Assembly (NCBI GenBank): GCA_964229765.1
Contig: CAXREJ010000053.1
Coordinates: 1,359 to 65,358, forward strand
Direction of reading: 5' to 3'
Source of the DNA: Bdellovibrionales bacterium
Lineage (GTDB): Bacteria > Bdellovibrionota > Bdellovibrionia > Bdellovibrionales > JAGQZY01
Length of the DNA stretch: 64,000 nucleotides
The translations under genes and the position numbers were made by a program. Shown piece after piece: positions 3,001-30,403 of the stretch. A model generated the notes under the pieces. The model was given only the letters and a program-made list of their open reading frames with translations, was not told the origin of the DNA and did not search any database. Each line of letters begins with the position of its first letter. The stretch's first letter is position 1.

Positions 3001-5356
3001 AATTTCCAGCAGCATCCGTTTGTGTAATGACAATGTTTTTAGTACCTTCACCAGCTGTAAAAGTGATGGCTTGTGAAAAAGTGCCCGCCGTACAAGTGGT
3101 GGTAGTCGGTGCAGTCAAATCTCCAGAAAAATTAATGGTGATTCCGGTTTCACAACTTCCAGCAATAGTAACTCCCGTTTGTGCTTCTGTGTTTGCGGCA
3201 GGAGAAGAAAAAGCCAAAGTAGGAGCTATAGTGTCTTTAATGAAGTCTCGATTGGCACTTCCTGAATTTCCAGCAGCATCCGTTTGTGTAATGACAATGT
3301 TTTTAGTCCCTTCACCAGCTGTAAAAGTGATGGCTTGTGAAAAAGTGCCCGCGGTACAAGTGGTGGAAGCCGGCGTTGTCAAATCTCCTGAAAGATTAAT
3401 AGTGATTCCTGTTTCACAACTTCCAGCAATGGTGACTCCCGTTTGTGCTTCTGTATTTGCGGCAGGAGATGAGAAAGCAAGAACAGGAGCTATAGTGTCC
3501 TTGATAAAATCTCTGTTGCTGGATCCAGAGTTTCCAGCAGCATCTGTTTGAGAGACAACAATATTTTTAGTCCCTTCACCAGCCATGAAAGTAATGGCTT
3601 GTGAGAATGTTCCAGCGGTACAAGTGGTGGTAGTCGGTGCAGTCAAATCACCAGAGAGATTAATGGTGATTCCAGTTTCACAACTTCCAGCAATGGTAAC
3701 ACCTGTTTGTGCTTCTGTGTTTGCTGCAGGAAAAGAAAAAGCCAAGGTCGGTGCTATAGAGTCTTTTATGTAAGAGCGCATATTGCCACTGGTGTTACTG
3801 GCTAAATCAATTTGTTGCACGGAGACCCATTTAGCACCTTCGCCGGCCGTAAAAGTCACGGGATAAGAAAAAGTTCCACCCCCTGAACAGCTAATAGAGT
3901 TGGAGTTCGTAATATCTCCACCCACATTGATATTAAGTCCCACTTCACAATTACCACTGATGGTAATTCCATTGGGTGCAGCTGTTAAGGGAGCCGGAGA
4001 ACTGATCGCTAGCAAAGGAAAAGTGGTATCAAGAACAATGGATTGTTGTGCCCCAATAATGTTATCAATAGGATCTTTAATCCAAAGATAGACTGTTTTT
4101 AACCCATCTCCGGCACTGAGATTAAAAGAAGTGGGTCTAGCTCCAAGCCATCCGCTTCCGCTACAACTACTGGCAAGGGGCTGAGTGTTTTGTGTTTCAC
4201 TTAAACACCAGGCTGTGGCGGCTCCATCGTTCGTGATTGTAGTGCTAATGCTCTGAGTGCTTGCATAGCTGTTTTGGTTGGCAGGGATGGTGTTTGAAGA
4301 ATCAGTTAAAGTCAGAGTGGGAGCCGCAGAAGAGACACTAACAGCAGGGCTACAGGTTTGAGGTCTTAGATTTCCGGCTTCATCCTCAACAAAAACTCCA
4401 ATGGAATAAGTGTTGCCGTCGACAAGGCCTGTTGCAAGATAGTTTGTATTTGTTTGGTGAAGAGATAACTGTGCTGGAGAACTACAAGTTCCGTTATCAA
4501 AAAATGAAACTAAAAAAGTATCCGTACTCTTTAAACCAGAGTCTCCAATATCACTCGCTGACCATGTAAAGTTGAAGCTTGAAGAGGCTATGTTAATAGC
4601 TCCCACATGTGAAGTGAAAACAGGTACGCTTGGAGGAGTTCTATCCACTATGACATTCGTAATAGAGGCTGTTGCTAAGTTTCCTGCACGATCTTGAAAG
4701 CGAGCTGCAACATTAAAAGTTCCTTCGAGGACAGATAAGGTTTGATTGTAAGACCCATTGATGCAATTAATGCTTTGATCGAAATCGGATTCATTATTAC
4801 AGTTGTTTTTAATACAAACCTTGATGACTTCATCAAATTCTAGGTTATCAGAACAAGTTCCTGAGAGGGTTAATGTGTTCTTTTTGCTGGGAAGTGGATC
4901 TAAGATTTGTAAAGTAACCACAGGGTCAGATTGGTCAAAAGAAATGGACTCTGTACACACAAGGGGTCCTAAAGTTTTATCCGTTTTTTGCAGAGCCACA
5001 CCCACACTGTATGTCTTTCCGTCTTGCACTTTACCTTCTAAAGAATAAGTTGTTTCTTTTTGAAAGCGAGCATCAATAGGAGATCCTTTACAGTTTTCTT
5101 TTTCAAACAAGTAAACCACGTAAGATTCAAAGAAAGGGGTGCTTGTGGCATAAGGAGTTTCCGGCCAAGACACTTGAAAAGCTTCGTAGTTAATATAAGC
5201 TTTAGATCTTGGTTCCGAAAAGCTATCAATTTGAAAAGAGCTGAGACTGGAGTCAACAATATCAACTTCACTCGTACAACCAGCAAAGAAAGACAATGTC
5301 GCAGGCATCAAGATTAAGAGTTTAAAATATTTGTAGCTATTGCTGAAAATATTCAT
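1..5356 (-). CDS. Giant surface lipoprotein/adhesin, partial (C-terminus lies beyond the left edge): lipoprotein signal peptide, long array of bacterial Ig-like repeats, NHL-repeat-like beta-propeller region near the window edge
   Basis: Manual minus-strand translation from ATG at 5356. It gives MNIFSNSYKYFKLLILMPATLSFFAGCTSE (lipobox FAGC). I translated 5356 down to about 2940 and 301 down to 2 in one frame without a stop; the middle was not translated. The ORF track omits it, presumably because it is edge-truncated. All listed minus ORFs in this span are in another frame. Repeats carry the T-D-A-A-G-N strand motif typical of Big-type domains. The last 100 codons read IRRIDLTTGVIETVIGGG...FIFMGGDVDNYHHPYIEDGN, which is NHL-like. 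Confidence 0.85.
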   Translation of the reverse strand, partial: MNIFSNSYKYFKLLILMPATLSFFAGCTSEVDIVDSSLSSFQIDSFSEPRSKAYINYEAFQVSWPETPYATSTPFFESYVVYLFEKENCKGSPIDARFQKETTYSLEGKVQDGKTYSVGVALQKTDKTLGPLVCTESISFDQSDPVVTLQILDPLPSKKNTLTLSGTCSDNLEFDEVIKVCIKNNCNNESDFDQSINCINGSYNQTLSVLEGTFNVAARFQDRAGNLATASITNVIVDRTPPSVPVFTSHVGAINIASSSFNFTWSASDIGDSGLKSTDTFLVSFFDNGTCSSPAQLSLHQTNTNYLATGLVDGNTYSIGVFVEDEAGNLRPQTCSPAVSVSSAAPTLTLTDSSNTIPANQNSYASTQSISTTITNDGAATAWCLSETQNTQPLASSCSGSGWLGARPTSFNLSAGDGLKTVYLWIKDPIDNIIGAQQSIVLDTTFPLLAISSPAPLTAAPNGITISGNCEVGLNINVGGDITNSNSISCSGGGTFSYPVTFTAGEGAKWVSVQQIDLASNTSGNMRSYIKDSIAPTLAFSFPAANTEAQTGVTIAGSCETGITINLSGDLTAPTTTTCTAGTFSQAITFMAGEGTKNIVVSQTDAAGNSGSSNRDFIKDTIAPVLAFSSPAANTEAQTGVTIAGSCETGITINLSGDLTTPASTTCTAGTFSQAITFTAGEGTKNIVITQTDAAGNSGSANRDFIKDTIAPTLAFSSPAANTEAQTGVTIAGSCETGITINFSGDLTAPTTTTCTAGTFSQAITFTAGEGTKNIVITQTDAAGNSGSANRDFIKDTIAPTLAFSSPAANTEAQTGVTIAGSCETGITINLSGDLTIPATTTCTASTFSQAITFTAGEGTKNIVISQTDAAGNSGSANRDFIRDNTAPVLSFSSPAANSHHQAGATISGACENGITVNLSGSGLASPATTSCIGSTFSESIVFTLSEGTKTITISQTDPAGNNTTQSRAFIKDITPPAPTINNPAINTQAQSSVTMDGTCETGLNISFSGTGLLSPFSITCPAGTYSQQVFFSAGEGTKNIVVSQTDAAGNTGSSNRDFIRDNTNPVITQTNLSFPYYSNTDTVTFGGACETGLPIQIVEGANNSSTTCTAGTWSYATPTKSSDSTYNYSFTQTDAAGNTSSTSGRYIRDTVAPSLTLTSSASQTTASDTVTLTGTCEAGLPSPIAVSNTDTSTATCSSGNWSYTTATQTTDASRDYDFTLTDQAGNSTQVSATWERNTQVPNLLITSDAEVINSTNDASFSGNCETGLNIEIRLSGVLENTIGCPAGTFNYTVDTQTTDGLRSYQFRQTNALMLSTNQVGVWKRDTQAPSFTATTFRINNNDVNTIKPQVEIDFTATDSLTNITHFCLKTDDQTDPLDGDACWVAVDSPAVGLTPSTTLALNNHSYNLPIVPETYSVYGWVKDQASNISSLTSGGLGTAGRDTDDIIYTQVFAPVVHEVIVGSNDYPANPPSESDLTVGVGQPLYIKWNATDDDPFPAGNVSIYFTTDDENYTLITSGLNNGQNGSCTIDHASTPADDNATGCYYWSAVPASGYMAIRVVVEDSIGLSSGFSSVGLNVASNIRFIAGNTDPGLNLSAKSAIFMSYRLDHFYSPDPHSLVVARDGRLFFKDKDRGILVIDPADGLQKVFLPQTGVSSGDGGPVSSATTQKIVKIALDFNTPNQRMWIYDYDRIRRIDLTTGVIETVIGGGATNADTINGALTAQLAYFTNNMEGYHGFVPFFALPNGDFIFMGGDVDNYHHPYIEDGNPRLRHYHAGTDQITSWR
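2673..3729. repeat. Four near-identical in-frame tandem repeats of 264 bp (88 aa Ig-like unit) inside the adhesin gene; more diverged copies flank them (about 1400-2670 and 3730-4330)
   Basis: The landmark string ggag(a/t)(a/g)a recurs at 2673, 2937, 3201, 3465 and 3729, exactly 264 bp apart. The plus-strand antisense ORF 2763..3551 shows the same 88-aa periodicity. Confidence 0.9.
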
Positions 5357-5731: not shown

Positions 5732-6037
5732 TTAGTCTGGAACGACATGCTTTTTCTTTAAAATAGTTCTTTTTGTACTCATATCAAGATTTAAGCGATA
5801 AAAATGTTCTCTGGAAACTAGCAAATTAAAAAGAAAATCCTCTTTTTGAATTTTTAAAATTTCACCAATGGTCTTTAGCTTATCATTGGGAGGACCGCAC
5901 TTTCCTTGTTCCCAGTTGGAAACCATTTGAGAGGTGATTTTTAATTGTTGCGCCAATTCTTTTTGGGTCAATTTTTGTTTTTCCCTTTTTTTGAGAAGGA
6001 ATTTTCCTATCGATTCAAATTGTTTTTGTGGCTTCAT
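5732..6037 (-). CDS. XRE-family helix-turn-helix transcriptional regulator
   Basis: 101 aa. HTH segment LTQKELAQQLKITSQMVSNWEQGK. AGGAG sits 8 nt upstream of the ATG. Confidence 0.75.
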   Translation of the reverse strand: MKPQKQFESIGKFLLKKREKQKLTQKELAQQLKITSQMVSNWEQGKCGPPNDKLKTIGEILKIQKEDFLFNLLVSREHFYRLNLDMSTKRTILKKKHVVPD

Positions 6038-15525: not shown

Positions 15526-16148
15526 TGTTTCTTTATATCATACTTTAGTTGCTAGGACTGGTTTTATTCTTTTCATATTCAATAGGAGTTGCATCAGTTT
15601 TATTGCTGGAAGGTTGGTTTTTTCTATCTAAGTATTAGAAGCATAATATTAGTAGTAGGTCTGGGAAGTACTTAATTTAATAATAAATTGTGTTAGCTAT
15701 TAATAACTAGATTATTGATGAATGCTAGTTCATATCGTGAAGTGAATAACAAAAAGATTCAGTGAGAAAATATAAATATACAATATATGTTTATGTTGAA
15801 TTCTAAAGCTGCCCATTAGAAAAATGTGTAAAATAATAAATATTTTAGCGACACTATTTTATGATCAGACATACTATAAATCATACATGAGTCTCATAAG
15901 CCTGCGCTTTTTTAAGGCTTTTCGCAATTTCTCTCAAATTTAGAACATATATTTATTTCAATAAAATTGAAAAAAGTTCAGGAAAAAATGCAATAAAAGT
16001 GACCAAAAAAGTCCGGTGTCAAATTATTAGACAGTGTGGAACAAGTGTTCTCAATAGGTTACAAGAAAATTGTTAAGGTACGGTTATTGTAATGTATACA
16101 AGTGAAAAATTAAATCGGTTAACTTACTATGTTTTTGTCAGGGGAAAC

Positions 16149-17471
16149 ATGAAGAATAACAGCGAGATATATTCCTTTAAAGGGAATGTATTTAAAATTT
16201 ATTTTTGGTGCCTTTTTGCAACCACACTTTTGGTTGCAACAAAGGGGTATGCGCAAACAGCGGAAAAAGAAGCTGGTGCTCGCTTTGATTCTTTAAAAGA
16301 ACTTCCCGTTGTTGAGGAAGAAGAGAAAAGTGAGAAGTACGATTCCTCAATTCAAAGATCCAATTTCTTAAGTCAAAAACCTCAGTATGAAAAAGAAATT
16401 GAAGAAGCTGTTAAAAACAGAAGATCTCAGTTCTTTTGGAAATTGCGAATGGATGGACAGTCTTTACAGACAGATTCTAATATACAGTCACAAATTGCTG
16501 GTGGAGCTTTTGGATTAAAATTTAACTATGAATTAGTTGAAGGTCTTCAATTCAAATCACGTGGAAATGTAAACTTTCAAACGGGAAGAACACAAGACGT
16601 ATTTGGCGATCAAGAACCAAGTTCTGGTCTTTATCCTAGAGACTTTAAAATTCACTATAGACCTTTTGAAGATTATTTAGATCTTGAAGCAGGAGTTATT
16701 AGTCAGGGTAAATTTAACGAGCCACTATTTGTATCCAGTCTACCCTTTATTGGATTTAGCGAAAATTTTAATTATGAGGTCGGTGCGGTAACTCTTCGTT
16801 TAGGGGCTCAACAGATGGTGCCAACCTCTTATACGCAATCCACTCGTGTTTCTGAAAGGGAGCAAGTTCCTCAATTTGGGACTCAAACAGTAGCGGCTAA
16901 ATGGATGATAAGTCGTAACAATTTTCTAGATGCCTCTGTGACACACTTTTCCTATAAAAACCTACCTTCTGTTGTGGCTTTTAACAGTTTTATTTATGGA
17001 AACACCGTTACTAATACAGACATTAATAATGCTGAGTTCATTTACGGATTTGATGGCTTTCTCAATCAAGTGACTTTTGAGCAAAAAATAACAAACAGTT
17101 TAAGTGCTCAGTTGCAATGGAATACGATTCAAAATAATAAAGCGCCGAGTGATTCTGGCGAGGCTCAAAGTATCAACTTGTGGTTAGCTAATGATTTTGG
17201 TCGTTGGATAGTGGCCACTCACTATAAAGATTATTTTATTGAGTCGGATGCTGTCCCCTCTTTTTATAACTCTCATTATTTGGGGCATAATAATCGCATC
17301 GGTCATTCCTATCGTATTGATGTGGAATCAAAAAAATGGGGTGTTATTTTTAGCGCTTCATACACTAAAGCGAATTTATTACAAACTGCGAATCGTCGAA
17401 TTGATGGATTACAACAAGATAATCAGCAAATTTTCTATCTAAGCGTGGAGACCCTTTATGACTTTATTTAA
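16149..17471 (+). CDS. Outer-membrane beta-barrel protein (unknown family)
   Basis: 440 aa from ATG 16149 (GGGGA upstream). Signal peptide ...LLVATKGYAQT, then a charged linker, then alternating beta-strand pattern to the C-terminal ETLYDFI. Its end overlaps the next gene by 14 nt. Confidence 0.65.
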   Translation: MKNNSEIYSFKGNVFKIYFWCLFATTLLVATKGYAQTAEKEAGARFDSLKELPVVEEEEKSEKYDSSIQRSNFLSQKPQYEKEIEEAVKNRRSQFFWKLRMDGQSLQTDSNIQSQIAGGAFGLKFNYELVEGLQFKSRGNVNFQTGRTQDVFGDQEPSSGLYPRDFKIHYRPFEDYLDLEAGVISQGKFNEPLFVSSLPFIGFSENFNYEVGAVTLRLGAQQMVPTSYTQSTRVSEREQVPQFGTQTVAAKWMISRNNFLDASVTHFSYKNLPSVVAFNSFIYGNTVTNTDINNAEFIYGFDGFLNQVTFEQKITNSLSAQLQWNTIQNNKAPSDSGEAQSINLWLANDFGRWIVATHYKDYFIESDAVPSFYNSHYLGHNNRIGHSYRIDVESKKWGVIFSASYTKANLLQTANRRIDGLQQDNQQIFYLSVETLYDFI

Positions 17472-20400
17472 GTCGTTGGTATCAATATTAACTCTGATTT
17501 CTTTGGTTGGCTGTGTTAATGCCGATCGAGAGAGTAAGCTGCAAGATCAACAGCTATCAGAATATAGTATTGAACAAAGCCTAATCGCCTTTAATAATCG
17601 CGCTATGTTTGAGGTAGGGGAGATACAACTCGAAGACGTTAAGTTTTCAGATAATAATCAAGGTGTTTTACGTCAATCCAATGAGATTCAACTTTTCTTT
17701 AAACTATGTAGTATTAGAGATCGGGCCTCTCAAGGTACGATTAGAAATGAAAGATTTCATATTAAATCAGAGTTGGGTGAAAATATCCTTTGGAAAAGAT
17801 CAGACAATAGTTCCGAGATCTCCAATCCTATTACTGTGAATAGTGGTAACTGTTTGAGATGGAGCCAAAAAGTTCCTGAGTTTGATTTTTACGCACCTTC
17901 TGTCAATATTGCACTTCACTTTGAGATTGAATCCCTTTCTGGCCAATTAGGTAAGATTGTTAAGAGAATTGGTTTTAACCCTTGGGATATGCACCGTCGA
18001 CAGAGTTTATCCAGCGGATTTTTTGATTTAACGGATTACAACCGAGCGGATTGGCATTCGGGTCAATGGGTTGTTGGCGATCAGATTGTTGATGCATTAA
18101 AAGGTGATTTGTTTGATCGGACGGCAGAACTTCGTTTTGATTCTATTTCGATTGAGCCTGTTGAGAGAACAAGTGTGAATGTCGCCAACTTTAATCGTCA
18201 AGCGGATGAGCTTTTAGATTCTGAAGAAATGGCACGTCGACGTGAAATTGAAAGATCTTTGTTAGAAGATCGCGCGGGTCTTCATATCAACGTTAATATG
18301 AATGCTCAGCCAGTGGTTTGGAATTACGATTCAGGTGGAAATAGAGATCGTACACCTATTACAAGTGGACGTTTTAAAGTTTATATGAACTTAATTGCTC
18401 GTGGAGCGGCTGATAATAACGAGAGACACTTATTAAGCTCTAATGTCACCGATATTACTGGTCGAAGTGCTTCCTTTATCTGGAGGATGAATCAGGACGG
18501 ACGCTTAATTACCAGCGTTCCTTTGATCTTAAGAAATCGAACAGAGTTTGGTCGAGTGGAGTTGCTGTTAAAAGTTGTTCCTGTGGACTCGGGACTTAGA
18601 AATGTAAAACCTTATACAGCGGTTTTTGATCTTGGTCAGTATGATCAGTGGGTGAGAAGACAAAATACCAGTTTTTCTTTTGATGAAAACTACAATCCTC
18701 TAGATCAAGTTTCTTATGATCAGTATGTGAATTCTGTTGACGGAATAGTTGATGATTTAAGAACAGTAAGAGAAATCGACCGATTTTATTTTGGTCCATT
18801 AAGAATGCGTTTCATACGCATTATGCCTGGTGAAACGGCCACAGATAGAACTTTACAGTATAGTGTTTCCACTTGTGTTGAGCATGGTCTTTATGGAAGT
18901 CGAGTTGGGCCTGGTTTACAGTTTGATATTGAAACAGAAGATAAGGGGCGAACCCACAAAATGAGAAGACAAACCAATGAAGAAGGTTGTCTTGTTTGGT
19001 TTGGATTCTTATCTCATAAGTTCTACCGCAAAGAAGTCTTACAGAAAAAGACAGCAATGGTTCGCTTTGCTGGAACAAAGAACAATGGTTCATCAAGTCC
19101 TGACAACAACATTAATCAGTGGGAAGAGACCATTAACCGGTACGAGCAAGAGTTTACTTATTACATGAACCCATGGGATGAAAAGTTCACCTTTGGTTGG
19201 GATGAGAACGAGATGCCTGATGGTTATGCTGATGAGATTGCTGAGCAAAGAAAGACAGCCCCGGTTTCTCAGTTGTTTATCGCTGACTTCAGATATGAAA
19301 CTATGGGCTTTCGCTATGCAATTGATAAATATCTCAACCTTAAAGTTAAAAAAGCGGTTCTTTTTAAAGCATTCCCTTATGTGTTGAAATACAATTCCAT
19401 TGTTTATGGTCGAATGGGAACCCAAAAGCTTCGTGATGGCGTTTATTTAATGAAAGTGGCCTTACAGAAAGATTACCTAGACCCTGCGGCGAAAGGTGTC
19501 AGAATTTACGATAGACATCTCCGTCGTCCCTATCAATTGGCAGAGTCCAATCGTCAGGAAAGTTTAACGGCCGAAGACTTAGAAGCTGCTTACGGAGCCG
19601 AGTATGTTTATGAGAGGTATGACCGTGAGTATGGTACGGTTGATGAGTTATTGCCTGAAGGTGTGGAGTCACATCCAGGGATGGGTTATTCGGATTCCGA
19701 CGATGATGTTGTTGGTGATTCCGTTGATCATCGTTTACTCACTGAAAGTGAATTAAGAGATACAAAAAAAGAATTTATATCCGTTCAAACAAAATTGGTT
19801 CGAGTTCTTGGTGGAATGATTATTACCCCCATCGAGTTTGAAATTGATGACTTGCGTTTAATGAGAATTAGGAATCAGTTTTATATTCAATTGGAAACAA
19901 TTGATGAACATAAACTCAGAATGGCTACCGTATTGGATCATGTCCTTGAAGATGTGGCTCGTGAAGGTAATCTTGAGACTGAATTTGAGCGTATATTTAC
20001 TGAGCTTGAAAGTCTTGAGTCCTTAGAAGTTGAGAGCGCTCAATTACAAGAGAGAATGAATCAGTACGACGAAACAGTGGATATGTCTGAAGCTCGTTCT
20101 GAGGTTGAAAGACTGGCTGGTTCTATTGAAGAAGGGCGTAATCGAATCCTTGGGATGTTAGGGCTTGATTCTGTTGATCGTGAAGATCAAGAGCTTTTCG
20201 AGAGAAGACGCCGTGAAATTGTAGAGAGATTTAATCGCCTTAGGCAGTACCGTCAACGTTTACAGGCTGTTGATGGGGATGATTATTTAGCGGCCTTTAG
20301 GAACTCTAAAAGAGAGCAAATTAATAGTGTTCTTAGAGCTCTTCAATATGAAGACTCTGTAAGTATGATTGATACAAATCAGATTGACGAAGAGTACAAT

Positions 20401-22725
20401 CAAGAAGATGGGGAAGGTCAAAGAGAGCAAGGTTTTGTCGATGATCCTATTCAAAGATTATTCTTTTCAAGACAAGGAACTTCTTCTGATCGAATTATGG
20501 CTGAACTGGATTATCGTATCGAGGTGGCAAGGCAGAGACTCGCTCAAGCGGAAGAAAATGGCCGATCCGATGATGTGGGTCTTTATCGTCAACTTATTGA
20601 GAACTTAGAAACTTTAAAGGTGGCCGACTTTACTGTTAGCCCTTTAACGCCAAGCTTTGATTTTGAACTAGTGGTGAATGAAGGGGAACATAATCCCGAT
20701 CTGCCCGAGGATGATGGTTTGTCTGGTTTGCCAGCAAGAACTTTTGTAGGTCCTTTGACTTTTGTTTTTAATACCAATGGTTCTTCATTGAGACCCACAG
20801 ACCGTTTGAATGAAGCTTATTGTCGTACCTCATTTTGTGAGGCGCCTGAGGAAATGATTAGAAGAGGTATTCCACCAACAGATGTTGAAACGGCTACACA
20901 AGTTCATACCGATGGAGAATTGCCGCTTACTTCGCAGCCTATTTATGCGAGTGGCGATTCTATCAATGCCAACTATGAGAACAATAAATACTACGGTTAT
21001 TTAAAAGATTATCATAATAAAACCGTTGATATGCTGATTGAAGAGAAAAAAGATATTGAAGAGAGAGAGTACCGTAAGATGGAAGAAGCCTCTCAAATCA
21101 TTAATTATACAAAAACCATGAAGCTCCGTTACGTTCTATTGAATGATAATGAGCGCTCACGTCTTAAGGGTATAGATCATAATTGTGCTCAAACGACTGA
21201 TATTGATCGAATCACTGAGTGTTTTACTGATATTCTTTCTGGAAGTGATATTTTAAATAAAGGAAGAATGTTTGAGCAATTGAATCACAGACAGACTTAT
21301 TATCCTGAGTTTGGTGATGCTCAAGAAAATAATTTCTCCAATAGAGCTTACTATAATTTAGCCGGTGATCAGGAAATCACGGAACAGAATATTTTAGATA
21401 TTATGGAAAAGGGATGGCGTAGTCCTGATATCGACCCCATTATGGTTCGTCGTTTTATGCATAGAATGTGCTTTGTGCTTGCTGAAAACTTTTTCACACC
21501 GGAGTATTTTGAAAAATCAGCGCCAACAATATGGGATACGTTTTCTCAAAGAGAAACGACCATGAATATGAGAGGTTTGATTCACCTTGAAAAAATATGT
21601 CATCGCTATGTTGGTAATATGTATGGCTACTTCAGGCAAAGAGACCGCTACGAGAGAGGTCAGCCATTTATCAACCTGGATCGTTTTTCATTTGATCATG
21701 ATGATGCTGTAAGACCACAGAATATGAGATTTTCTCCCATAGTTATTGAAAGAAAAGTGAGAGCTTATTCGACCACGGATCGTTATGTTTACCGTGGTGG
21801 TAAATCACTTAATATTAATTTATCGGCTAGCTTTAACTTATCGAGTAGTAACGGGATTAAGGTTGTCACTTCAGCAAACTTTAAACCTTGGGACTGGGTC
21901 TCTGATGTGACTGGAGCTCTTTTAGGTCGAGTGGCTAGAAATATCATTGGTGGTGTTGGAATCAGCCAGTCCAACTCGATGGATGAGTCAGCGGGACGCT
22001 CACAAGGTGTTACGGTGAGTTCTGGTACGTTTTTAGTCAGCCAACAGGCAACACTTGATATTGAGCTTGGTGAGTATGAAAGATGTTTAGTTGTAAGACT
22101 TCATCCTAAAATCATTAAAGATTTTATGGACTCTGATTTTATTAAAGAGAGTTTTTTAGATGAAAATATTGATCGCAACAATGATGGTGAGCCTGAGGAG
22201 TTAAGTGATATCTTATCTCAAGGTATGTTAATTTGTTCTGGGCAAATCCGTAGTAACCGTTTGCCGATCAAAGAAAAGTATTATTACTTCACTCAGCATT
22301 TTACTGAAGGTGATATGCTCGATACTGCGGATCTTCATAACCACCCTTGGCTGTTACAGTTAAGAGGTTATAGGGATTTTCAAGTTTTCACTTCAATGAT
22401 TGGAGCTCGTGAAGTTCAATATATTGATACTAATAACTGGGCCGGAGAAGTTATGGGGCGAACTATGACAGATGCTGCGGCTTTAGCGAATGGTAACCTT
22501 TCTGAAATGGGAGGAAGTGATACTGACAATTACAATGCGCAATTTCAAATTGTGCATCAGTCAGAAGATATAAACTGGCCACTGGAAGAGCTAGGAAGAA
22601 CTTATTTTGAAGTTCTGCCCACTTTCCCGGGACTCTATACTTACATGAATGAAGATGGAGAAGATGTAAGTAATTGGCCTTATGATAGTACAGATCCAGG
22701 GCGATCTTTTGCACCTAATGAGTGA
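17458..22725 (+). CDS. Giant lipoprotein (1755 aa) of unknown function with an acidic coiled-coil central region
   Basis: MTLFKSLVSILTLISLVGC (lipobox LVGC). The reading frame is uninterrupted for 5.3 kb. The central Glu/Arg-rich segment is predicted coiled coil (about 19850-20600). No family recognised. Confidence 0.85.
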   Translation: MTLFKSLVSILTLISLVGCVNADRESKLQDQQLSEYSIEQSLIAFNNRAMFEVGEIQLEDVKFSDNNQGVLRQSNEIQLFFKLCSIRDRASQGTIRNERFHIKSELGENILWKRSDNSSEISNPITVNSGNCLRWSQKVPEFDFYAPSVNIALHFEIESLSGQLGKIVKRIGFNPWDMHRRQSLSSGFFDLTDYNRADWHSGQWVVGDQIVDALKGDLFDRTAELRFDSISIEPVERTSVNVANFNRQADELLDSEEMARRREIERSLLEDRAGLHINVNMNAQPVVWNYDSGGNRDRTPITSGRFKVYMNLIARGAADNNERHLLSSNVTDITGRSASFIWRMNQDGRLITSVPLILRNRTEFGRVELLLKVVPVDSGLRNVKPYTAVFDLGQYDQWVRRQNTSFSFDENYNPLDQVSYDQYVNSVDGIVDDLRTVREIDRFYFGPLRMRFIRIMPGETATDRTLQYSVSTCVEHGLYGSRVGPGLQFDIETEDKGRTHKMRRQTNEEGCLVWFGFLSHKFYRKEVLQKKTAMVRFAGTKNNGSSSPDNNINQWEETINRYEQEFTYYMNPWDEKFTFGWDENEMPDGYADEIAEQRKTAPVSQLFIADFRYETMGFRYAIDKYLNLKVKKAVLFKAFPYVLKYNSIVYGRMGTQKLRDGVYLMKVALQKDYLDPAAKGVRIYDRHLRRPYQLAESNRQESLTAEDLEAAYGAEYVYERYDREYGTVDELLPEGVESHPGMGYSDSDDDVVGDSVDHRLLTESELRDTKKEFISVQTKLVRVLGGMIITPIEFEIDDLRLMRIRNQFYIQLETIDEHKLRMATVLDHVLEDVAREGNLETEFERIFTELESLESLEVESAQLQERMNQYDETVDMSEARSEVERLAGSIEEGRNRILGMLGLDSVDREDQELFERRRREIVERFNRLRQYRQRLQAVDGDDYLAAFRNSKREQINSVLRALQYEDSVSMIDTNQIDEEYNQEDGEGQREQGFVDDPIQRLFFSRQGTSSDRIMAELDYRIEVARQRLAQAEENGRSDDVGLYRQLIENLETLKVADFTVSPLTPSFDFELVVNEGEHNPDLPEDDGLSGLPARTFVGPLTFVFNTNGSSLRPTDRLNEAYCRTSFCEAPEEMIRRGIPPTDVETATQVHTDGELPLTSQPIYASGDSINANYENNKYYGYLKDYHNKTVDMLIEEKKDIEEREYRKMEEASQIINYTKTMKLRYVLLNDNERSRLKGIDHNCAQTTDIDRITECFTDILSGSDILNKGRMFEQLNHRQTYYPEFGDAQENNFSNRAYYNLAGDQEITEQNILDIMEKGWRSPDIDPIMVRRFMHRMCFVLAENFFTPEYFEKSAPTIWDTFSQRETTMNMRGLIHLEKICHRYVGNMYGYFRQRDRYERGQPFINLDRFSFDHDDAVRPQNMRFSPIVIERKVRAYSTTDRYVYRGGKSLNINLSASFNLSSSNGIKVVTSANFKPWDWVSDVTGALLGRVARNIIGGVGISQSNSMDESAGRSQGVTVSSGTFLVSQQATLDIELGEYERCLVVRLHPKIIKDFMDSDFIKESFLDENIDRNNDGEPEELSDILSQGMLICSGQIRSNRLPIKEKYYYFTQHFTEGDMLDTADLHNHPWLLQLRGYRDFQVFTSMIGAREVQYIDTNNWAGEVMGRTMTDAAALANGNLSEMGGSDTDNYNAQFQIVHQSEDINWPLEELGRTYFEVLPTFPGLYTYMNEDGEDVSNWPYDSTDPGRSFAPNE

Positions 22726-23939: not shown

Positions 23940-24830
23940 ATGAAAAAAATCATATTGTTTTTTGCTGTCCTAATTATGTTGTCTTTTAATGCTTTTTCAG
24001 AAGATGGAATCAGTCCTCTGAAGACTCAAGAATACTTTCAGAGAAGAATTAAAGAAGAAAGAACTGTTAAAGACATGCCTTTTTCTGTTTCAGCTCATAA
24101 ACCTTTTTATATCTTACCGGCCTCGTATAATTCTAATCCTTCAAAAGGAAGTCTCAGTAATTTAACTCAAGTCGACCATTTAGAGGCTAAATTTCAGTTT
24201 AGTTTTAAGTTGAATGTGATTGACTCATTTTGGGATAACCATATGACTCTCATGTTTGCTTATACAAACCTTTCCTTTTGGCAACTGTATAACAAAAAGA
24301 ACTCGGCTCCATTCAGGGAAACCAATCATGAGCCTGAATTATTTCTTGAATATCATCCTGAGAGTTTAGACAGTACGGATGAGTGGGTCTATTATCGTTT
24401 GGGATTTGTGCATCAGTCCAATGGTCAAGATGTGCCAGAGTCACGCAGTTGGAATAGAATCTATTTGCAAGGACTCTTCAATTTTAAATACCTTTCTGTA
24501 CAATTAAAAGCTTGGAAAAGAATTCCTGAAAGTGAAAAAAGCACACCACTGGCTGTCGGTGGAGACGATAACCCTGATATTCATTTGTATTTAGGTAATT
24601 TTGAACTTCTACTTATTCAAAAGTGGGGATCGAGTACAATGACTGCCCTTTGGCGTAACAATCTTCGGTCCCAAAATAGGGGGTCTATTGAGTTAGGTTG
24701 GAGTTTCCCTCTCAATGAGAACTACAAAGGGTATGTGCAGTTTTATAATGGATATGGAGAGAGCCTTATTGATTATAATTATCCCGTGGCTAGGATTGGT
24801 GCTGGCTTTTTGATGGCTGATTGGTTGTAA
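23940..24830 (+). CDS. pldA: Outer-membrane phospholipase A (OMPLA)
   Basis: 296 aa with signal peptide. Catalytic block GFVHQSNGQ...SRSWNRIY and C-terminal aromatic residue. Confidence 0.85.
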   Translation: MKKIILFFAVLIMLSFNAFSEDGISPLKTQEYFQRRIKEERTVKDMPFSVSAHKPFYILPASYNSNPSKGSLSNLTQVDHLEAKFQFSFKLNVIDSFWDNHMTLMFAYTNLSFWQLYNKKNSAPFRETNHEPELFLEYHPESLDSTDEWVYYRLGFVHQSNGQDVPESRSWNRIYLQGLFNFKYLSVQLKAWKRIPESEKSTPLAVGGDDNPDIHLYLGNFELLLIQKWGSSTMTALWRNNLRSQNRGSIELGWSFPLNENYKGYVQFYNGYGESLIDYNYPVARIGAGFLMADWL

Positions 24831-25214: not shown

Positions 25215-28115
25215 ATGCTCAAAGGCAAAATTATTTTTCGCTTTGTCGTAGTCAGTTTTTTACTTGTATTTGCATTTAATAACTGTACGAAGGATGCGGA
25301 TTTTGACAATTCTGATAGTTCAAGCGCAAGTTCATTTGCGGCGGACTATTTATTAGGACTCATTGATGATGCGGTGGAAACGGAAGCTCAGTTACGTGAG
25401 CAGGGGACTCCAGAAGCTATTGCACAGGCCAATGAAATTCGTTTGTATATTGATATGATTGAACAGCTTATTGCTGTTGATGGACGCGGTCTATCTATTG
25501 GCTCGGCTCAAGTTCTTGATGCTCGAGACTATTTATTAAATGCTCATTTAATGGGGCGCGATATGCTTATTGAGTATAACTTCAATGCAGCCATTGCCGC
25601 GCTTCAAGCTGAAGATGAAAGACTCTCAAATTTAATTGCTGAGTTAGAAATTAAGTTTGATGCTTCACTGGCAGACTTAGAGACTCGCTTGAGAACTGAG
25701 ATGCAGGCTTCTGATGCTGAGATCCTGGCTCAATTGAACGCATTAAGAGATCGTTTTAATGCTTTTGAAACTCAGGTTAATAATAAGTTTATTGAAGTCG
25801 ATGGAAGACTTGTTAATCTTGAAACCATCACCACAAATCTTCAAACTCGTATTGATGAGATTGATGCGAATATTGTAATTATTCAAAATAATATTACTAA
25901 TATTCAAGATAGCAGTGAGTCCGCGATGAAAGCTCTTTGGGAAGCTCTTGAGGGAGTGAAAAAAGATCTTATGAATGAAATCGTTGCTGTTAAAGAAGCA
26001 CAAAATGAAATGAAAGAAAAGTTAGCTGAACAACAAAAAGCTTTTGAAAGCTATGTGGCGGATCAGTCAAAATTGGCTGAAGTTCAAGGGCGCATGTGTA
26101 AGCTTGATGCCAGTGGAGAATTGTCTGTTGGTCAAACGGCTTGTGATGGTTCATCGACTGAAGATGATGTTCTTGACGGTTCTTGTTGTATGACTGCTGA
26201 TAACTTAGATTGCGATATGATGTTTCCTGATGAAACTGATTCAGCGAAGTTAGCTAAAACTCAGTGTAACTCGTTTATCGTGACTTTAAGAAATCGCGAT
26301 GCTCAGATTAAAGAATTGGCGGAAGCTGATGCTGAGCAGAAGAAAGATATTGAACTGTTAATGGCAAGAGTGGATGACCTTGAGGAGGTTGTGAAAAACC
26401 TTTCTGAGGAAGTTAAAGGTCTTGTTGCCGATATGGAAAGTTTAAAATCTAAACTGGCTGATATTGATGATAGACTTCTTATTGTTGAGTTTAAAGCTTC
26501 AAGAGCAGAGGCTGGTGCAACTTTAAATGAAATGTCTGATCTTTATTTAGCTTGGATCACTCGTCGTAAAGCGGATGTGAGAAATCGTTTTTGTCACCAT
26601 AATGCAAAAGTCGCTTACAATAGAAGTGACTATGAAGTGGCGAAACAAAATCATGTTTACTGTCATGAGAGATTGGCTTGGTTGAATCAAGCACAAGAAC
26701 TTGTTCAATTAGCTAAAGCTTATACTAATGGTGTTTTATCAACAAATGTTGATCAGAATTGTAGTGCTAATATCTCAGGTCGTAATGCTGAATCTTTATC
26801 AGTAAATGATCTTTCTGACATGAATGTGGCTCAAGAGGTCATTAAGAAATGTACCAGTGGGCAAGCTTTAACTAAAGCTTATCTATTAAGTATTATTAAG
26901 CTTCATAATAAAATTGGTCCTGATTTCAGAACGGCTGAGTACATGGCTAAAAAAGCTAAAATTGCTCAACTCCTTTATTTTGGTAGCGAAGTGCATTTAG
27001 CTTCATCTGCTGCTATTCAAGCTTTTGAAAATGTGGATCCTACTGCGGATCATTTAAAAGACACTCCTTATGGAAAAATTGAGCGTGTTTTTAAGCGCAG
27101 ATATGTAGAGACTCGTTTAAGAGTTTCTGGAAAGTATCCAGAAGATCCTTCACAGTTTAAGGCTAATATCTCTGGATTCAATGTTGTTTACACTCATGCT
27201 GAAATCAATGGGGCTGCTGATGCTTACTTAAAAAGAGTTAAGGCTTTAGAGATTGAAGGTACTTGTGGTGGTCAATGTGGATTTAAAGTTGTTGGAAGAA
27301 ACAAGGTTGCTCGTATTGGATCTCGTTACAGTTATCCTCAAGATTCAAAAACCAAGTGTCCTATCTTTAACGACATCGTTATGATTCCAAGTCAAGATGG
27401 AAAGCACTACGCTTACCGTTTAAACTACTCTCGTTATCAAGGTGCTACTGAGCAAATCTTACCTTACTGGACATGGAACTCGAATCATCATCCAATTGCT
27501 GAAAGTGCTGCGGATGTTGCTGCCGGTAAATTCAGACAGTGTGGTTATAGAGTTCGTAACACAGTACACAGATTTGGTATTCCTGATACAAAATTGCGTG
27601 GACGCTTAGCACTTCGCTATGGGAAGCCTTATGCGAAAACACATGGTCTTCCACAGTGTATGAGATTCCACTTCACTTGTCGTCTTTGGGATGGTCCAGA
27701 TGGCAATGGTGAGTGGGTCAGTCCTAATCCGAATGCCAACATCATGCATTATTTGAGTGGTTACAGTAACGCCAAGGTTGATTCTTTCTGTAAGACTTCT
27801 GGAGCTTCTTATGTACCAAAAACTCGTCAGCTTTCTCAAGATGAAAAAGCAACAATGCATTACTACAAAGGTGTTCAAGATGCTGGATCAATAGCCATGG
27901 CTAACGCTGTAAACTCTAATACGACTCAGTTAACAGAGGACTATTGGATGACTCGTGATGTGGCTGTTGCTTATGGAAGTGGAAATAAAACGACTTCAGT
28001 GGCCACTCCTTTTTATGGTAAATCATCTTCTCATGGACAGGCCTTCTTTAGAAAACTGTTCAAGATGACTGATTTTGCCAATATTGATGTGCAACAATGT
28101 TATGATCCTCAATAA
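25215..28115 (+). CDS. Large exported coiled-coil protein (966 aa) with Cys-rich globular C-terminal half; possible non-canonical lipoprotein
   Basis: Signal peptide FRFVVVSFLLVFAFNNC (lipobox-like, non-canonical). N-terminal 450 aa are heptad-rich (LETRLRTEMQ..., IDEIDANIVIIQNNITNIQ). The C-terminal half has many Cys. GGGGGA RBS. Confidence 0.8.
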   Translation: MLKGKIIFRFVVVSFLLVFAFNNCTKDADFDNSDSSSASSFAADYLLGLIDDAVETEAQLREQGTPEAIAQANEIRLYIDMIEQLIAVDGRGLSIGSAQVLDARDYLLNAHLMGRDMLIEYNFNAAIAALQAEDERLSNLIAELEIKFDASLADLETRLRTEMQASDAEILAQLNALRDRFNAFETQVNNKFIEVDGRLVNLETITTNLQTRIDEIDANIVIIQNNITNIQDSSESAMKALWEALEGVKKDLMNEIVAVKEAQNEMKEKLAEQQKAFESYVADQSKLAEVQGRMCKLDASGELSVGQTACDGSSTEDDVLDGSCCMTADNLDCDMMFPDETDSAKLAKTQCNSFIVTLRNRDAQIKELAEADAEQKKDIELLMARVDDLEEVVKNLSEEVKGLVADMESLKSKLADIDDRLLIVEFKASRAEAGATLNEMSDLYLAWITRRKADVRNRFCHHNAKVAYNRSDYEVAKQNHVYCHERLAWLNQAQELVQLAKAYTNGVLSTNVDQNCSANISGRNAESLSVNDLSDMNVAQEVIKKCTSGQALTKAYLLSIIKLHNKIGPDFRTAEYMAKKAKIAQLLYFGSEVHLASSAAIQAFENVDPTADHLKDTPYGKIERVFKRRYVETRLRVSGKYPEDPSQFKANISGFNVVYTHAEINGAADAYLKRVKALEIEGTCGGQCGFKVVGRNKVARIGSRYSYPQDSKTKCPIFNDIVMIPSQDGKHYAYRLNYSRYQGATEQILPYWTWNSNHHPIAESAADVAAGKFRQCGYRVRNTVHRFGIPDTKLRGRLALRYGKPYAKTHGLPQCMRFHFTCRLWDGPDGNGEWVSPNPNANIMHYLSGYSNAKVDSFCKTSGASYVPKTRQLSQDEKATMHYYKGVQDAGSIAMANAVNSNTTQLTEDYWMTRDVAVAYGSGNKTTSVATPFYGKSSSHGQAFFRKLFKMTDFANIDVQQCYDPQ

Positions 28116-28121
28116 AAACAA

Positions 28122-29216
28122 ATGTCTTTGTTGATTAATCGAAATCCCCATGTAAGCATTTTATACATGGGGATTTTTTTATTTATTTTAATGATCGCAA
28201 TACCTAGTCAAACTTTTGCTGCTGAAAAATGTGCAGTGATGAAGAAAAACTCTGTCGCATTGAAAGCTAAAACAAAAGTAAAGAAAAGAGTGCTTCGCAA
28301 TGAGGTGTTTCCTTTTTTGGGTTTAAGTAAAAATGGTGTGGCTGTAAAAACCAAAATTAATGGACAGGCTTATTGGCTTCTTTCTAAGCTCGTTAGAGTG
28401 GAAGAAGGAGAACTTTGTGCACTCAATAAACTTGAAAGCAATAATAAAAGTGTCGATCCACTGGATTCGCTTCTTGATTCATCGACTGATCAATATGATT
28501 CTCTTCCTGAGGATTCAAGTTTAGATAAAATGACAAAGTCATCAGAGAGCAAAGAGTTCAAAGCTGTCTCTGAAGTAAAAAGCGGATGGACTTATGGTGT
28601 TGAAGCTGGATACTTAATTTCTAATTCAAAAAAACCCTTTGAGAATTTGATCACTCCAACTCCTCCAAGTAATGTGGATGTGAATGAAGATACTTATGAT
28701 AGTCCTTTTGTTGATTCCGTTTCTGGTGGCTCGGGCTTTGACTTTTCAGGTTTTGTGCAGATGCCACTTTCTCCGTTATTTTCTTTGAAGATGCAGCTAG
28801 GTTATATGCAAAGGGAATTAAGTTACGTCTATAGAACCAATCCTAATAATACCGATCAATCCTTTGTGACCTATAATCAACTGCCGCAGTCTGAGAACAC
28901 AGTCTCATTTCAATCGGTTTATTTAACTCTTATGCCAAAATTTTCTTTCTCACTTTTTAGTGTTCCTATGGATTTTGGTCTAGGAATTAGAGGGCATTAT
29001 TATTTGCAACAATTTAGGCAAGAGCGCAGAACGGCCCCGCAGAAGTTGACTCCTTATTTTGTGGATTCGGGATACAGTGCTTTTGAAATTGAAATTCTAC
29101 CCCGTTTAGAGGTCAAGTTTCAGCCCATCTACGTTTATTTACAATTGACCAATCAGCTGACCGGAGCCTCGCATTTTAATATGGATCCTCACCTTGGGGT
29201 CGGGATCGAGTTCTAA
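28122..29216 (+). CDS. Outer-membrane beta-barrel protein with N-terminal SH3b-like segment (tentative)
   Basis: 364 aa. Signal peptide ...IPSQTFAAEK. The C-terminal 200 aa have an alternating pattern ending GVGIEF (terminal Phe). It starts 6 nt after the upstream stop. Confidence 0.6.
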   Translation: MSLLINRNPHVSILYMGIFLFILMIAIPSQTFAAEKCAVMKKNSVALKAKTKVKKRVLRNEVFPFLGLSKNGVAVKTKINGQAYWLLSKLVRVEEGELCALNKLESNNKSVDPLDSLLDSSTDQYDSLPEDSSLDKMTKSSESKEFKAVSEVKSGWTYGVEAGYLISNSKKPFENLITPTPPSNVDVNEDTYDSPFVDSVSGGSGFDFSGFVQMPLSPLFSLKMQLGYMQRELSYVYRTNPNNTDQSFVTYNQLPQSENTVSFQSVYLTLMPKFSFSLFSVPMDFGLGIRGHYYLQQFRQERRTAPQKLTPYFVDSGYSAFEIEILPRLEVKFQPIYVYLQLTNQLTGASHFNMDPHLGVGIEF

Positions 29217-29449: not shown

Positions 29450-30403
29450 GTGAAATATAAAGACCTATTCATTTTTTCAATTTATGTATCAACTACTTTT
29501 ATTTCCAGTCCTGTTTGGTCAGCCATGCATTGTAGTGATTTGCTCACTCGTGCCCAAGAAAATGAGAGTATTCATTCGGAAATAGACAACCTAAATCAGG
29601 CGATACTTGAAATCCGTCCTCTCCTGGAAAGACACCAACTCACTATAGTGCCGATGACCTCTTTGCGTTCTCAAGTGGGTGAGAGATCATCTCGACCCTA
29701 TTTACATAAGCTTCTCAGTTGGGCTGATCGATTGAGAACAAGAATGGGAGGCCGCCCCTTGAATATGGAGGGGCACAATCAGGAGCCCGTCTCTGATCAA
29801 GTTTTAATGGCTCCTCTATTGAATGACTCCCCATTAATGCAAGAAAGAACAGATCAAGATGCCGTTGTGCCGGCGCGAGCCCATCGCGAGCCACTCACTT
29901 ATGAACAATTGAAGCGTCGCCAGGTCACAGAGGTCGAAGATCGTTGTTTTGCTGGAAGTTGCTCGGTTTTGACTCCCAATGGAGAGAGACCTATTTCCGA
30001 GCTGAGAGTCGGTGATTCTGTATTTTCTGTGGATGTTAACACTGGGCAAGTGGTCACTAATCGTATTGCAAAAGTTCACTATACTGAAAATGGACAGGCT
30101 GTCCATGCGCGAATAGAGGGCGATAGAGCGATGTGGGTAAATCCTCTTCATCGTTTCTATACCCCTGACAGCAAAGGGTGGTTACCCTTGTTACAAGTTA
30201 ATATCTATAGCCAATCTGTAATGGCTGTGGAAATAGGGCGCGATAGTGCTCATTCTGGCTTTAACAATCAAAGCTTGGAGGTTGAATCTCAAAGTGTGCT
30301 TGAGTGGATGCCTGTTTACAGTTTAGAGATGGCCGAGCCACCTTATAACTTTATTGTTGAAGGGATTTTGGTTCACAATGGTCCCTTGCCCAAAATCATA
30401 TAG
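29450..30403 (+). CDS. Secreted protein with C-terminal Hint / bacterial intein-like (BIL) autoprocessing domain
   Basis: GTG start, signal peptide ...SSPVWSA. Hint blocks are CFAGSCSVLTPNGERPISELRVGDSVFS (aa 166 on), NPLHRFYT and VYSLEMAEPPYNFIVEGILVHN. Only GPLPKII follows. Confidence 0.75.
   Translation: MKYKDLFIFSIYVSTTFISSPVWSAMHCSDLLTRAQENESIHSEIDNLNQAILEIRPLLERHQLTIVPMTSLRSQVGERSSRPYLHKLLSWADRLRTRMGGRPLNMEGHNQEPVSDQVLMAPLLNDSPLMQERTDQDAVVPARAHREPLTYEQLKRRQVTEVEDRCFAGSCSVLTPNGERPISELRVGDSVFSVDVNTGQVVTNRIAKVHYTENGQAVHARIEGDRAMWVNPLHRFYTPDSKGWLPLLQVNIYSQSVMAVEIGRDSAHSGFNNQSLEVESQSVLEWMPVYSLEMAEPPYNFIVEGILVHNGPLPKII

Follow-up and report, generated by a model that had tools for sequence, protein, structure and literature searches.

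Positions 25,215 to 29,216 of a 64,000-nucleotide (nt) stretch of DNA from a Bdellovibrionales bacterium (contig CAXREJ010000053.1 of assembly GCA_964229765.1; the whole stretch is called the window here) carry two adjacent genes, A and B. Gene A encodes a large exported protein, most likely lipidated, in which a helical stalk precedes a cysteine-rich globular head. Gene B encodes a protein in which an SH3-like module and an acidic linker precede a putative small outer-membrane barrel. Comparison with related genomes strongly indicates that the two constitute a lineage-restricted, strictly paired two-gene module in a subset of Bdellovibrionales. The interpretation that we favour, with slightly less than even confidence, is that A/B is an outer-membrane appendage on the cell surface, in which a stalked lipoprotein is docked by a barrel dedicated to it. 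The features of the two genes and their products are listed with window coordinates, strand and residue numbers (amino acids, aa); pLDDT is the predicted local distance difference test score of the AlphaFold models.

25215-28115, + strand: gene A, 966 aa, ATG start; exported stalk-and-head protein, probable lipoprotein; homologues at E = 0
25215-25286, + strand: signal peptide of A, aa 1-24, ending in the lipobox variant FNNC (25275-25286); Cys24 presumed lipidated
25287-25319, + strand: Ser/Asp-rich variable tether of A, aa 25-35; pLDDT < 50 for residues 22-38; mean pairwise identity 0.18
25320-25604, + strand: base domain of A, a small helical bundle, aa 36-130; conserved VLDxRDYLLNAHLMGRD motif; 10-residue block mean pLDDT 76-94
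25605-25790, + strand: proximal stalk helix H1 of A, aa 131-192, part of helix 98-192; length varies among orthologues
25821-26090, + strand: distal stalk helix H2 of A, aa 203-292; length quantised in the family
26091-26267, + strand: six-Cys knob of A, aa 293-351, with Cys 295, 310, 324, 325, 333 and 351; presumed hairpin tip
26268-26498, + strand: return helix H3 of A, aa 352-428; 77 residues, or 11 heptads
26499-28112, + strand: head of A, a globular α/β domain, aa 429-966 (538 aa); 12 conserved Cys; 10-residue block mean pLDDT 75-97
28122-29216, + strand: gene B, 364 aa, ATG start; putative outer-membrane partner protein
28122-28223, + strand: signal peptide of B, aa 1-34, ...PSQTFA|AE; N-terminal extension conserved in P0009 and L001
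28224-28424, + strand: SH3-like module of B, aa 35-101, bracketed by Cys37 and Cys99
28425-28580, + strand: acidic Ser/Asp/Glu-rich linker of B, aa 102-153, variable in length and sequence; mean pairwise identity 0.16; pLDDT < 50
28581-29213, + strand: putative C-terminal barrel of B with approximately 8 strands, aa 154-364; long conserved loops 171-202, 232-259 and 296-320; terminal Phe

The gene pair and its distribution

Both open reading frames (ORFs) are real genes. Their positions and the 6-nt spacer between them are exactly as given in an initial annotation of this DNA, and a strong Shine-Dalgarno-like sequence, GGGGGA, lies just 5′ of gene A. Both have homologues at E values from 0 to 1e-100, which is beyond chance, and those of A at E = 0 are full length. 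The product of gene B is 100% identical to a database protein (P0008) encoded on two contigs, one of 258 kb at NCBI and one from Logan, and has further relatives at 1e-124 to 1e-132; an exact-sequence look-up with protein A returned no record. Promoter and terminator scans gave nothing above shuffled expectation.

The genes are adjacent in all ten genomes where the pairing could be assessed. These are the window itself, L001 (the organism of L002 and L008), L009, L003, L006 (the organism of L007 and L010), L011, L012, L013, L014 and L015; locus L004 was left out of the count as its contig ends just after A. The order is reversed to B then A in L012 (4515-5777 and 5938-9159), the most divergent genome checked from a scan of GTDB, and the flanking genes vary among the loci. 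Within the approximately 250 kb of DNA that was fetched, B homologues occur only beside A. Pairwise identities of A and of B are correlated (r = 0.95), with B the faster-evolving of the two. Absence of co-conservation had been named in the initial annotation as an observation that would count against coupling of the two genes; what we find is co-conservation in 10 of 10 genomes with a single swap of order.

The A family comprises approximately 30 clusters among 1.84 billion representative proteins, and all titled records belong to metagenome-assembled genomes (MAGs) of Bdellovibrionales, Bdellovibrionaceae or Pseudobdellovibrionaceae. All carriers of A/B are uncultured MAGs and the named proteins are annotated as ‘hypothetical’. 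Two loci show departures in detail. In L012 the B homologue has two SH3-like modules, and 3′ of the pair lie two ORFs (279 aa and 813 aa) with hydrophobic N-termini and no Pfam match. In L014 the B homologue is split into two ORFs, 3001-3747 (248 aa) and 3778-4197 (139 aa), by a frameshift or pseudogene formation or by an assembly error.

Protein A, a stalk-and-head protein with a probable lipobox variant

The N-terminus of protein A is MLKGKIIFRFVVVSFLLVFAFNNC. A positively charged start and a hydrophobic core are followed by a cysteine, but the box at that position is FNNC as against the lipobox consensus [LVI][ASTVI][GAS]C. The non-canonical ending is as the initial annotation described it, and it is shared widely in the family; in 27 of 34 tabulated members the signal peptide ends in [FY][NQT]NC. 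Three orthologues carry canonical lipoboxes at the homologous cysteine, LVGGC in P0022, FSLGC in P0024 and IGIGC in P0027, and none of the 22 full-length members of alignment A3 lacks this cysteine. An F[NQ]NC ending is also found on two unrelated exported ORFs of locus L015 (L015:2653 and L015:4869). The count of cysteines is informative as well. There are 19 conserved positions in A, one in the lipobox, six in the knob and 12 in the head, and most orthologues have 19 in total, an odd number. Subtraction of the lipobox cysteine leaves 18, an even number available for disulfides. The canonical boxes at the same cysteine in orthologues, the recurrence of the motif on unrelated ORFs and the parity of the cysteines together make it most likely that [FY][NQT]NC is a clade-specific variant of the lipobox and that Cys24 of A is lipidated. 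Nothing relevant on FNNC or FQNC as a lipobox was found in the literature. Signal peptides of this class would probably escape standard lipoprotein predictors. The window's other putative lipoproteins carry canonical lipoboxes.

The canonical lipoboxes of the orthologues also imply that A is probably anchored by its own lipid, such that a barrel is not needed for the purpose. The initial annotation had proposed that A is exported, which its signal peptide bears out, and that it might be anchored by the barrel of B, for which the probable lipid anchor leaves no need.

One of the two L015 ORFs with this signal ending, L015:4869-5978, is the immediate upstream neighbour of the A homologue (which starts at 6001), an arrangement seen in this one locus only. 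It encodes a putative lipoprotein of 369 aa with the ending GFNNC, a weak match to VWA (E 6e-4) and a MIDAS-like DNSGS motif, and resembles adhesins of the Bd0875/Bd1483 type.

The structure of A was modelled with AlphaFold2 using a 24-sequence family alignment and the mean pLDDT is 76.9. After the tether, in which Phe30 is conserved among the eight closest family members (it is invariant in alignment A1), the model places base-domain helices at residues 36-63 and 66-86 and a third from residue 98 onward. The last of these continues into the stalk as H1, which ends in a conserved F..F..QV..[KR]F motif (aa 181-192), the F-motif. H2 follows, then a segment assigned as non-helical by DSSP (residues 293-341) within the knob, and a helix spanning 342-428. 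The heptad helices total approximately 330 residues, interrupted by the knob, and their family-averaged hydrophobic periodicity is heptad-like at 3.45-3.55, with H2 at 3.55. The knob cysteine positions are conserved in 91-100% of A-family members; 29 of the 31 knob-bearing members have six cysteines and the other two have four.

The lengths of the stalk segments are constrained in a distinctive way. From the last knob cysteine to the head there are exactly 77 residues in 23 of 31 members, despite sequence identities of only 30-40%. Between the F-motif and the first knob cysteine the spacing is quantised, at 103 residues (nine sequences) or 89 residues (13 sequences). The segment between lipobox and F-motif, by comparison, ranges from 118 to 359 residues over the family. 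In two lineages H2 and H3 carry paired insertions, +6/+7 in P0003 and +3/+4 in P0023, at one site in each helix. The two sites are at similar distances from the knob and coincide with patches of small residues and with stretches of low pLDDT; the patches are Ala-rich on H2, some 52-59 residues from the knob end, and Gly/Ala on H3, and their heights match. In P0039 H2, knob and H3 are all missing together. The fixed length of H3, the quantised length of H2, the matched sites of insertion and of small residues, and the joint loss in P0039 suggest that H2-knob-H3 is probably an antiparallel hairpin capped by the knob rather than a simple parallel fibre. The heptad coiled coils of the initial annotation are seen in the helices and their periodicity; the fibre or stalk it envisaged is probably not a simple parallel one.

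The coiled-coil register, which the initial annotation left to be assigned as trimeric or dimeric, is mixed. Residues 213-230 have Ile at both a and d core positions, as in trimers, whereas residues 377-428 have β-branched residues at a and Leu at d, a dimer-like or generic pattern. Sequence matches in the PDB to residues 125-290 are mostly trimeric fibre coiled coils, among them reovirus sigma-1, gp26, fibritin, trimeric autotransporter adhesins, HA2 and the HR1 of spike. Stalk architecture varies widely in P0031, P0032, P0037 and P0039. P0031 has approximately 470 residues ahead of the knob, and P0037 has longer arms on both sides (249 and 170 residues) and a four-Cys knob.

The head confirms the globular, Cys-rich C-terminal half that was noted at the outset, and it is modelled with confidence. 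It is the most conserved part of A, with mean pairwise identities of 0.36-0.53 (0.53 for residues 429-620) compared with approximately 0.33 in the stalk and 0.18 in the tether. A HMMER search with the head profile against the 1.84 billion representative proteins retrieved only 30 clusters. In every full-length match the head is at the C-terminus after a long N-terminal region, and where these regions were examined further they are helical or coiled coil. The divergent members P0031, P0032, P0034, P0037, P0038, P0039, P0044 and P0048 display no informative domain fusions.

Attempts to relate A to proteins of known family or fold were unproductive. Scans of Pfam, NCBIfam and PHROGs gave only sub-threshold coiled-coil noise (DUF1664, Baculo_PEP_C, SMC_prok_A at 17 bits and a phage GDPD family at 22.8 bits over the coiled coil), and a permissive Pfam scan of the head from seven members found nothing consistent. 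Searches of PDB sequences detected no relative with the head profile and coiled-coil matches only with the full-length profile. The fold comparison of the head was made with the full-length model, for which Foldseek gave no match at E ≤ 0.001 in PDB or BFVD; the best entries, at E 0.02 or worse, are long helical proteins such as ciliary microtubule inner proteins and phage tape-measure or minor tail proteins. The head, as modelled, is a fold without a recognised relative in Pfam, in PDB sequences or by Foldseek in PDB and BFVD. That it is so highly conserved points to a ligand that is itself conserved, or to enzymatic activity, and away from variable prey recognition.

Protein B and the genes around the pair

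The B-family alignment reveals a signal peptide, one or two Cys-bracketed modules of approximately 65 aa, an acidic linker and a C-terminal region of approximately 210 aa. A profile of 13 N-terminal modules matched SH3 domains in 37 of 38 cases in a search of the PDB, with in-register alignment and a best E of 0.002. Below threshold, Pfam matches to the modules of orthologues are to GW (20.5 bits against a cutoff of 21, in one orthologue) and to SH3_3 (E 0.54). AlphaFold gave no confident model of the module.

The sole Pfam match to B itself is PF13568 (OMP_b-brl_2) over residues 154-333, at 26.8 bits against a cutoff of 27. The L003 orthologue exceeds the threshold with 30.0 bits; four of seven members match this family and three of seven match PF13505 (OMP_b-brl). 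The C-terminus of B, ...HLGVGIEF, is an alternating hydrophobic β-signal with terminal Phe, and among eight orthologues the last residue is Phe in seven and Leu in one. An AlphaFold model based on a three-sequence alignment has a mean pLDDT of 41. In this low-confidence model DSSP assigns approximately eight long strands joined by short turns and three long loops. With the model as query, Foldseek matches almost exclusively outer-membrane barrels, small ones at the top (NspA, OmpW, OprH, OmpX and the OprF N-domain), at non-significant E values of 0.03-0.5. A PDB sequence search with the full-length B profile gave coiled-coil matches or nothing. We tentatively assign the barrel, from the model, to the small OmpA/OmpX class with approximately eight strands, in what would be a new arrangement with SH3-like modules N-terminal to the barrel. 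The initial description of B, an SH3-like N-terminus and acidic linker ahead of a small barrel ending in Phe, agrees with the SH3 profile, the linker composition and the PF13568 match, and the SH3-like assignment is reasonably supported. It had also recognised no known family for either protein, and the library scans, with their sub-threshold matches, concur that neither A nor B has a curated family.

The putative loops 171-202, 232-259 and 296-320 of B are at least as conserved as the strands. Surface loops are not usually so conserved, which suggests a specific partner. The termini of outer-membrane barrels are periplasmic. Given this, and closure of each SH3-like module by an end-to-end disulfide, the modules most likely remain periplasmic and are not secreted.

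The genes around the pair offer little further guidance. Upstream, at 23940-24830 (+) and approximately 380 nt from gene A, is a gene for outer-membrane phospholipase A (PF02253, E 7e-90) that is not kept beside the A/B pair in other loci. Downstream, at 29450-30403 (+), is a gene for a 317-aa protein with a hydrophobic, signal-like N-terminal segment, the C-terminal half of which has sub-threshold Hint/intein-like matches (Hint_2 at E 8e-6; weak intein N- and C-terminal motifs). The gene is confined to the locus as it occurs in this organism (also L005). Two further genes at 16092-17471 and 17458-22725 (+), which overlap by 14 nt, encode an exported protein of 459 aa and then a protein of 1755 aa with a canonical LVGC lipobox, neither of which has a significant Pfam or NCBIfam match. 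The initial annotation had treated these as a first pair, with the order of A/B as its mirror image; homology between the two pairs is rejected (BLASTP E > 0.4). GC skew is positive over the entire 64 kb window. An Rfam scan of the whole window found no family at gathering score, and the window therefore contains neither rRNA nor any other RNA gene that Rfam detects; a separate ARAGORN scan for tRNAs was not made.

Orientation, partnership and comparison with known systems

Two questions bear on function. On which side of the outer membrane does A lie, and what does B do for it? In the interpretation that we favour A is exported, is most likely lipidated on Cys24 and would be shown on the cell surface as a stalked appendage. 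Starting at its membrane anchor it consists of the flexible tether, the base domain, the variable stalk helix, a rigid H2-knob-H3 unit of fixed length and the disulfide-stabilised head of approximately 540 aa. With H2 and H3 antiparallel the knob would be the distal tip, and the head would be placed about 11-13 nm below that tip, at the F-motif junction. B would be a small outer-membrane barrel with one or two SH3-like modules hanging in the periplasm on the long acidic linker. It would serve as docking or organising partner, its loops holding A and its SH3-like modules linking the complex to the wall or to a partner in the periplasm, and it would not be the translocation pore for A. A physical complex of A and B is inferred from the strict pairing of their genes.

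Three observations lead us to favour surface display. The stalk varies approximately three-fold in length, with some 470 residues before the knob in P0031, a poor fit to a periplasm of fixed width. The putative external loops of B are conserved. Surface lipobox adhesins are known in B. bacteriovorus, Bd0875 being a surface-exposed example (PMC11003981). A role for B in docking or coupling rather than in translocation is preferred on account of the barrel class and the lack of POTRA, autotransporter or Slam signatures.

Several considerations weigh against this interpretation. The box FNNC deviates from the canonical lipobox, and signal peptidase I may instead cleave just upstream, after VFA or LG. 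The case for interaction of A with B is one of gene co-conservation. Most lipoproteins in proteobacteria-like diderms face the periplasm, and there is no known route by which a 940-aa lipoprotein with nine disulfides would cross the outer membrane. The strand count and loop assignment of B are tentative in view of the low confidence of its model (pLDDT 41), and the stalk helices of A are at low pLDDT in AlphaFold. Strict covariation of H2 and H3 lengths is not upheld, since P0030 and P0031 carry +7 in H3 only, and we therefore regard the case for the hairpin as one of moderate strength that derives from lengths and indels rather than from coordinates.

The principal alternative, which we regard as possible but doubtful, retains the pairing and inverts the orientation. 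A would hang from the inner leaflet of the outer membrane, and the SH3-like modules of B would bind A or peptidoglycan, to give a link between outer membrane and wall, or a scaffold, like Lpp, OmpA, Pal or the PapS-porin complex. This is the default orientation of outer-membrane lipoproteins, and the disulfide-closed modules are themselves probably periplasmic. Bacterial SH3 domains often bind the cell wall. The head exceeds the rest of A in conservation, as expected for a partner in the same cell, such as peptidoglycan or an inner-membrane protein. There is a precedent in the PapS-porin complex of a lipoprotein and an outer-membrane protein, which bridges outer membrane and peptidoglycan (PMC11369160), and a weak sequence match of A residues 378-423 to Lpp (E 0.006-0.009). 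The approximately three-fold range of stalk length, and the long helical region before the P0031 knob, would however be a misfit unless the stalk lies flat, and the conserved, putatively extracellular loops of B are left unexplained. In addition A has no C-terminal Lys for cross-linking of the Lpp type, and Pfam scans find in it no OmpA-like, LysM or SPOR peptidoglycan-binding domain. The alternative that B is a dedicated exporter of A, in the manner of an autotransporter, two-partner secretion or Slam, is one that we consider very improbable. The genes are tightly adjacent and strictly co-conserved, and the Slam-SLP and TpsB-TpsA gene pairs are likewise adjacent. The barrel segment, however, is only some 210 residues with approximately eight strands and matches PF13568 and, at the top of the Foldseek list, the OmpX/NspA/OmpW class, barrels of which are not known to have a polypeptide-conducting lumen. 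Neither B nor its orthologues have a Pfam match to autotransporter barrels, POTRA/ShlB or the DUF560 Slam family, and the passenger would carry nine probable disulfides. The suggestion in the initial annotation that A is exported by its own barrel is not supported, as this barrel looks too small and translocator signatures were not found in the Pfam scans. On the same grounds B is not assigned as a type Va autotransporter, two-partner secretion protein or Slam, the hallmarks of which are, in turn, a 12-strand barrel, a 16-strand Omp85 with POTRA domains and a DUF560 barrel with TPR.

Might A instead be a prey-recognition fibre like the MAT fibres of Bdellovibrio, a trimeric stalk with an adhesive tip for which B is the surface receptor or anchor? 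The host lineage is predatory, trimeric fibre coiled coils dominate the PDB matches for residues 125-290, Ile occupies both core positions of residues 213-230, and the proposed binding target of the MAT N-terminal domain is an as yet unidentified element on the predator surface (PMC10769870). MAT fibres are also large (approximately 900-1000 aa) exported stalk-plus-tip proteins of predatory Bdellovibrionota, but they have a conserved β-rich N-terminal domain of approximately 130 aa, meandering β-rich trimeric stalks and variable tips with or without S74 (PMC10769870). In A residues 36-130 are helical and the defining β-rich domain is absent, for which reason A as a MAT fibre is rejected. A has in its place a lipobox, an all-helical stalk that is probably folded back as a hairpin and a conserved rather than variable head; it is single copy at each locus, has no S74 match in Pfam and no significant Foldseek match to any fold, β-helical fibres included. 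A prey-recognition fibre of this general kind is improbable. So, in our estimation, is a more elaborate version of surface display in which A/B would be a hitherto undescribed surface organelle of predatory Bdellovibrionales, with a homo-oligomeric, possibly trimeric, lipid-anchored stalk, a six-helix-bundle-like spike, knob caps, a head collar of new fold below the spike and SH3-barrel coupling to the wall, for contact with or breach of the prey envelope. The spike would be of fixed length, and H3 would pack antiparallel on an H2 core as in class I fusion proteins. Lastly, A and B could be unrelated neighbours, or A a cytoplasmic coiled-coil protein of the SMC type, a family placement that the initial annotation had named as contrary to its own. 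The NCBIfam SMC_prok_A model does match A (E 9e-4), but with 17 bits against a cutoff of 729 and over the coiled coil only. A has a signal peptide and 19 cysteines, 18 of them conserved besides that of the lipobox, and no ATPase or P-loop family was found in the Pfam and NCBIfam scans, although Walker motifs were not searched for directly; an SMC/Rad50 ATPase is rejected. The pair is also kept in 10 of 10 genomes despite differing flanks and one order swap. Taken together, these observations effectively refute both versions.

Comparison with characterised systems places A/B among partnerships of a lipoprotein with a barrel, and the resemblance to PapS-porin, RcsF-outer-membrane protein, LptDE and CglB-Glt is in concept only. 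PapS with Por39/Por41 of Rhodospirillum rubrum is likewise a lipid-anchored protein with a barrel and a possible link to the wall (PMC11369160). PapS carries an OmpA-like peptidoglycan-binding domain whereas A has none, and here the candidate wall-binding module, the SH3-like one, is on the barrel protein. RcsF-OmpA/C/F and LptE-LptD also pair lipoprotein and barrel, and the disordered tether after Cys24 of A resembles the RcsF linker. None of these has sequence or domain kinship to A/B; B has approximately eight strands compared with 16-26 in porins and LptD, and A is far larger and Cys-rich. CglB of Myxococcus xanthus, with the GltA/B/H/K outer-membrane platform, is a Cys-rich outer-membrane lipoprotein adhesin that depends on partner barrels for retention and exposure. 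CglB is stalkless and of the VWA kind, the Glt barrels share no homology with B, and no gliding-motility genes lie beside A/B. The Bd0875 and Bd1483 lipobox MIDAS adhesins of B. bacteriovorus provide a precedent for a lipid-anchored surface protein (PMC11003981); they have a VWA/MIDAS domain where A has none, and a barrel partner is not described for Bd0875.

Parts of each protein have counterparts elsewhere. Lpp is a lipid-anchored helical coiled coil, to which A has the weak match (9rld_L and 1eq7_A) already mentioned, but it is a trimer of 58 aa that is cross-linked to peptidoglycan through a C-terminal Lys, whereas A has 966 aa and ends in ...YDPQ. The identification of A as Lpp is rejected on size and C-terminus, leaving a weak heptad similarity. 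OmpA combines an eight-stranded barrel and a tethered periplasmic module, as is proposed for B, but with the barrel N-terminal and OmpA_C C-terminal; B would have the reverse order with an SH3-like module. Long antiparallel hairpins occur in the receptor-binding parts of colicins Ia and E3, in periplasmic adaptor proteins such as EmrA (4tko, E 0.01), in the arm of seryl-tRNA synthetase and in the six-helix bundles of class I fusion proteins. In these a rigid hairpin of fixed length sets a small tip far from a larger globular domain, as we infer for A. The sequence similarity is confined to the coiled coil, and all of them lack the disulfide knob, lipid anchor and head of A. A type Vc trimeric autotransporter was also considered for A and rejected, since the C-terminus is Cys-rich and globular (...QQCYDPQ), has no Pfam match and lacks a YadA-like anchor.

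Predatory Bdellovibrionota have many uncharacterised envelope proteins, and how they attach to prey and anchor their surface structures are open questions. As a concept, A/B belongs to the lipoprotein-barrel envelope modules, here built on an orphan head and with an unusual lipobox. The module is cleanly bounded and strictly co-inherited, with an orphan disulfide-rich head, a precisely conserved stalk geometry and an unusual layout of N-terminal SH3-like module and barrel. The lipobox variant [FY][NQT]NC bears on the annotation of Bdellovibrionales genomes under either orientation. If A is surface-exposed, the pair would be a predator appendage of a new type, and a barrel-docked lipoprotein amenable to study; if it is periplasmic, A/B would be a new kind of envelope-organising element.

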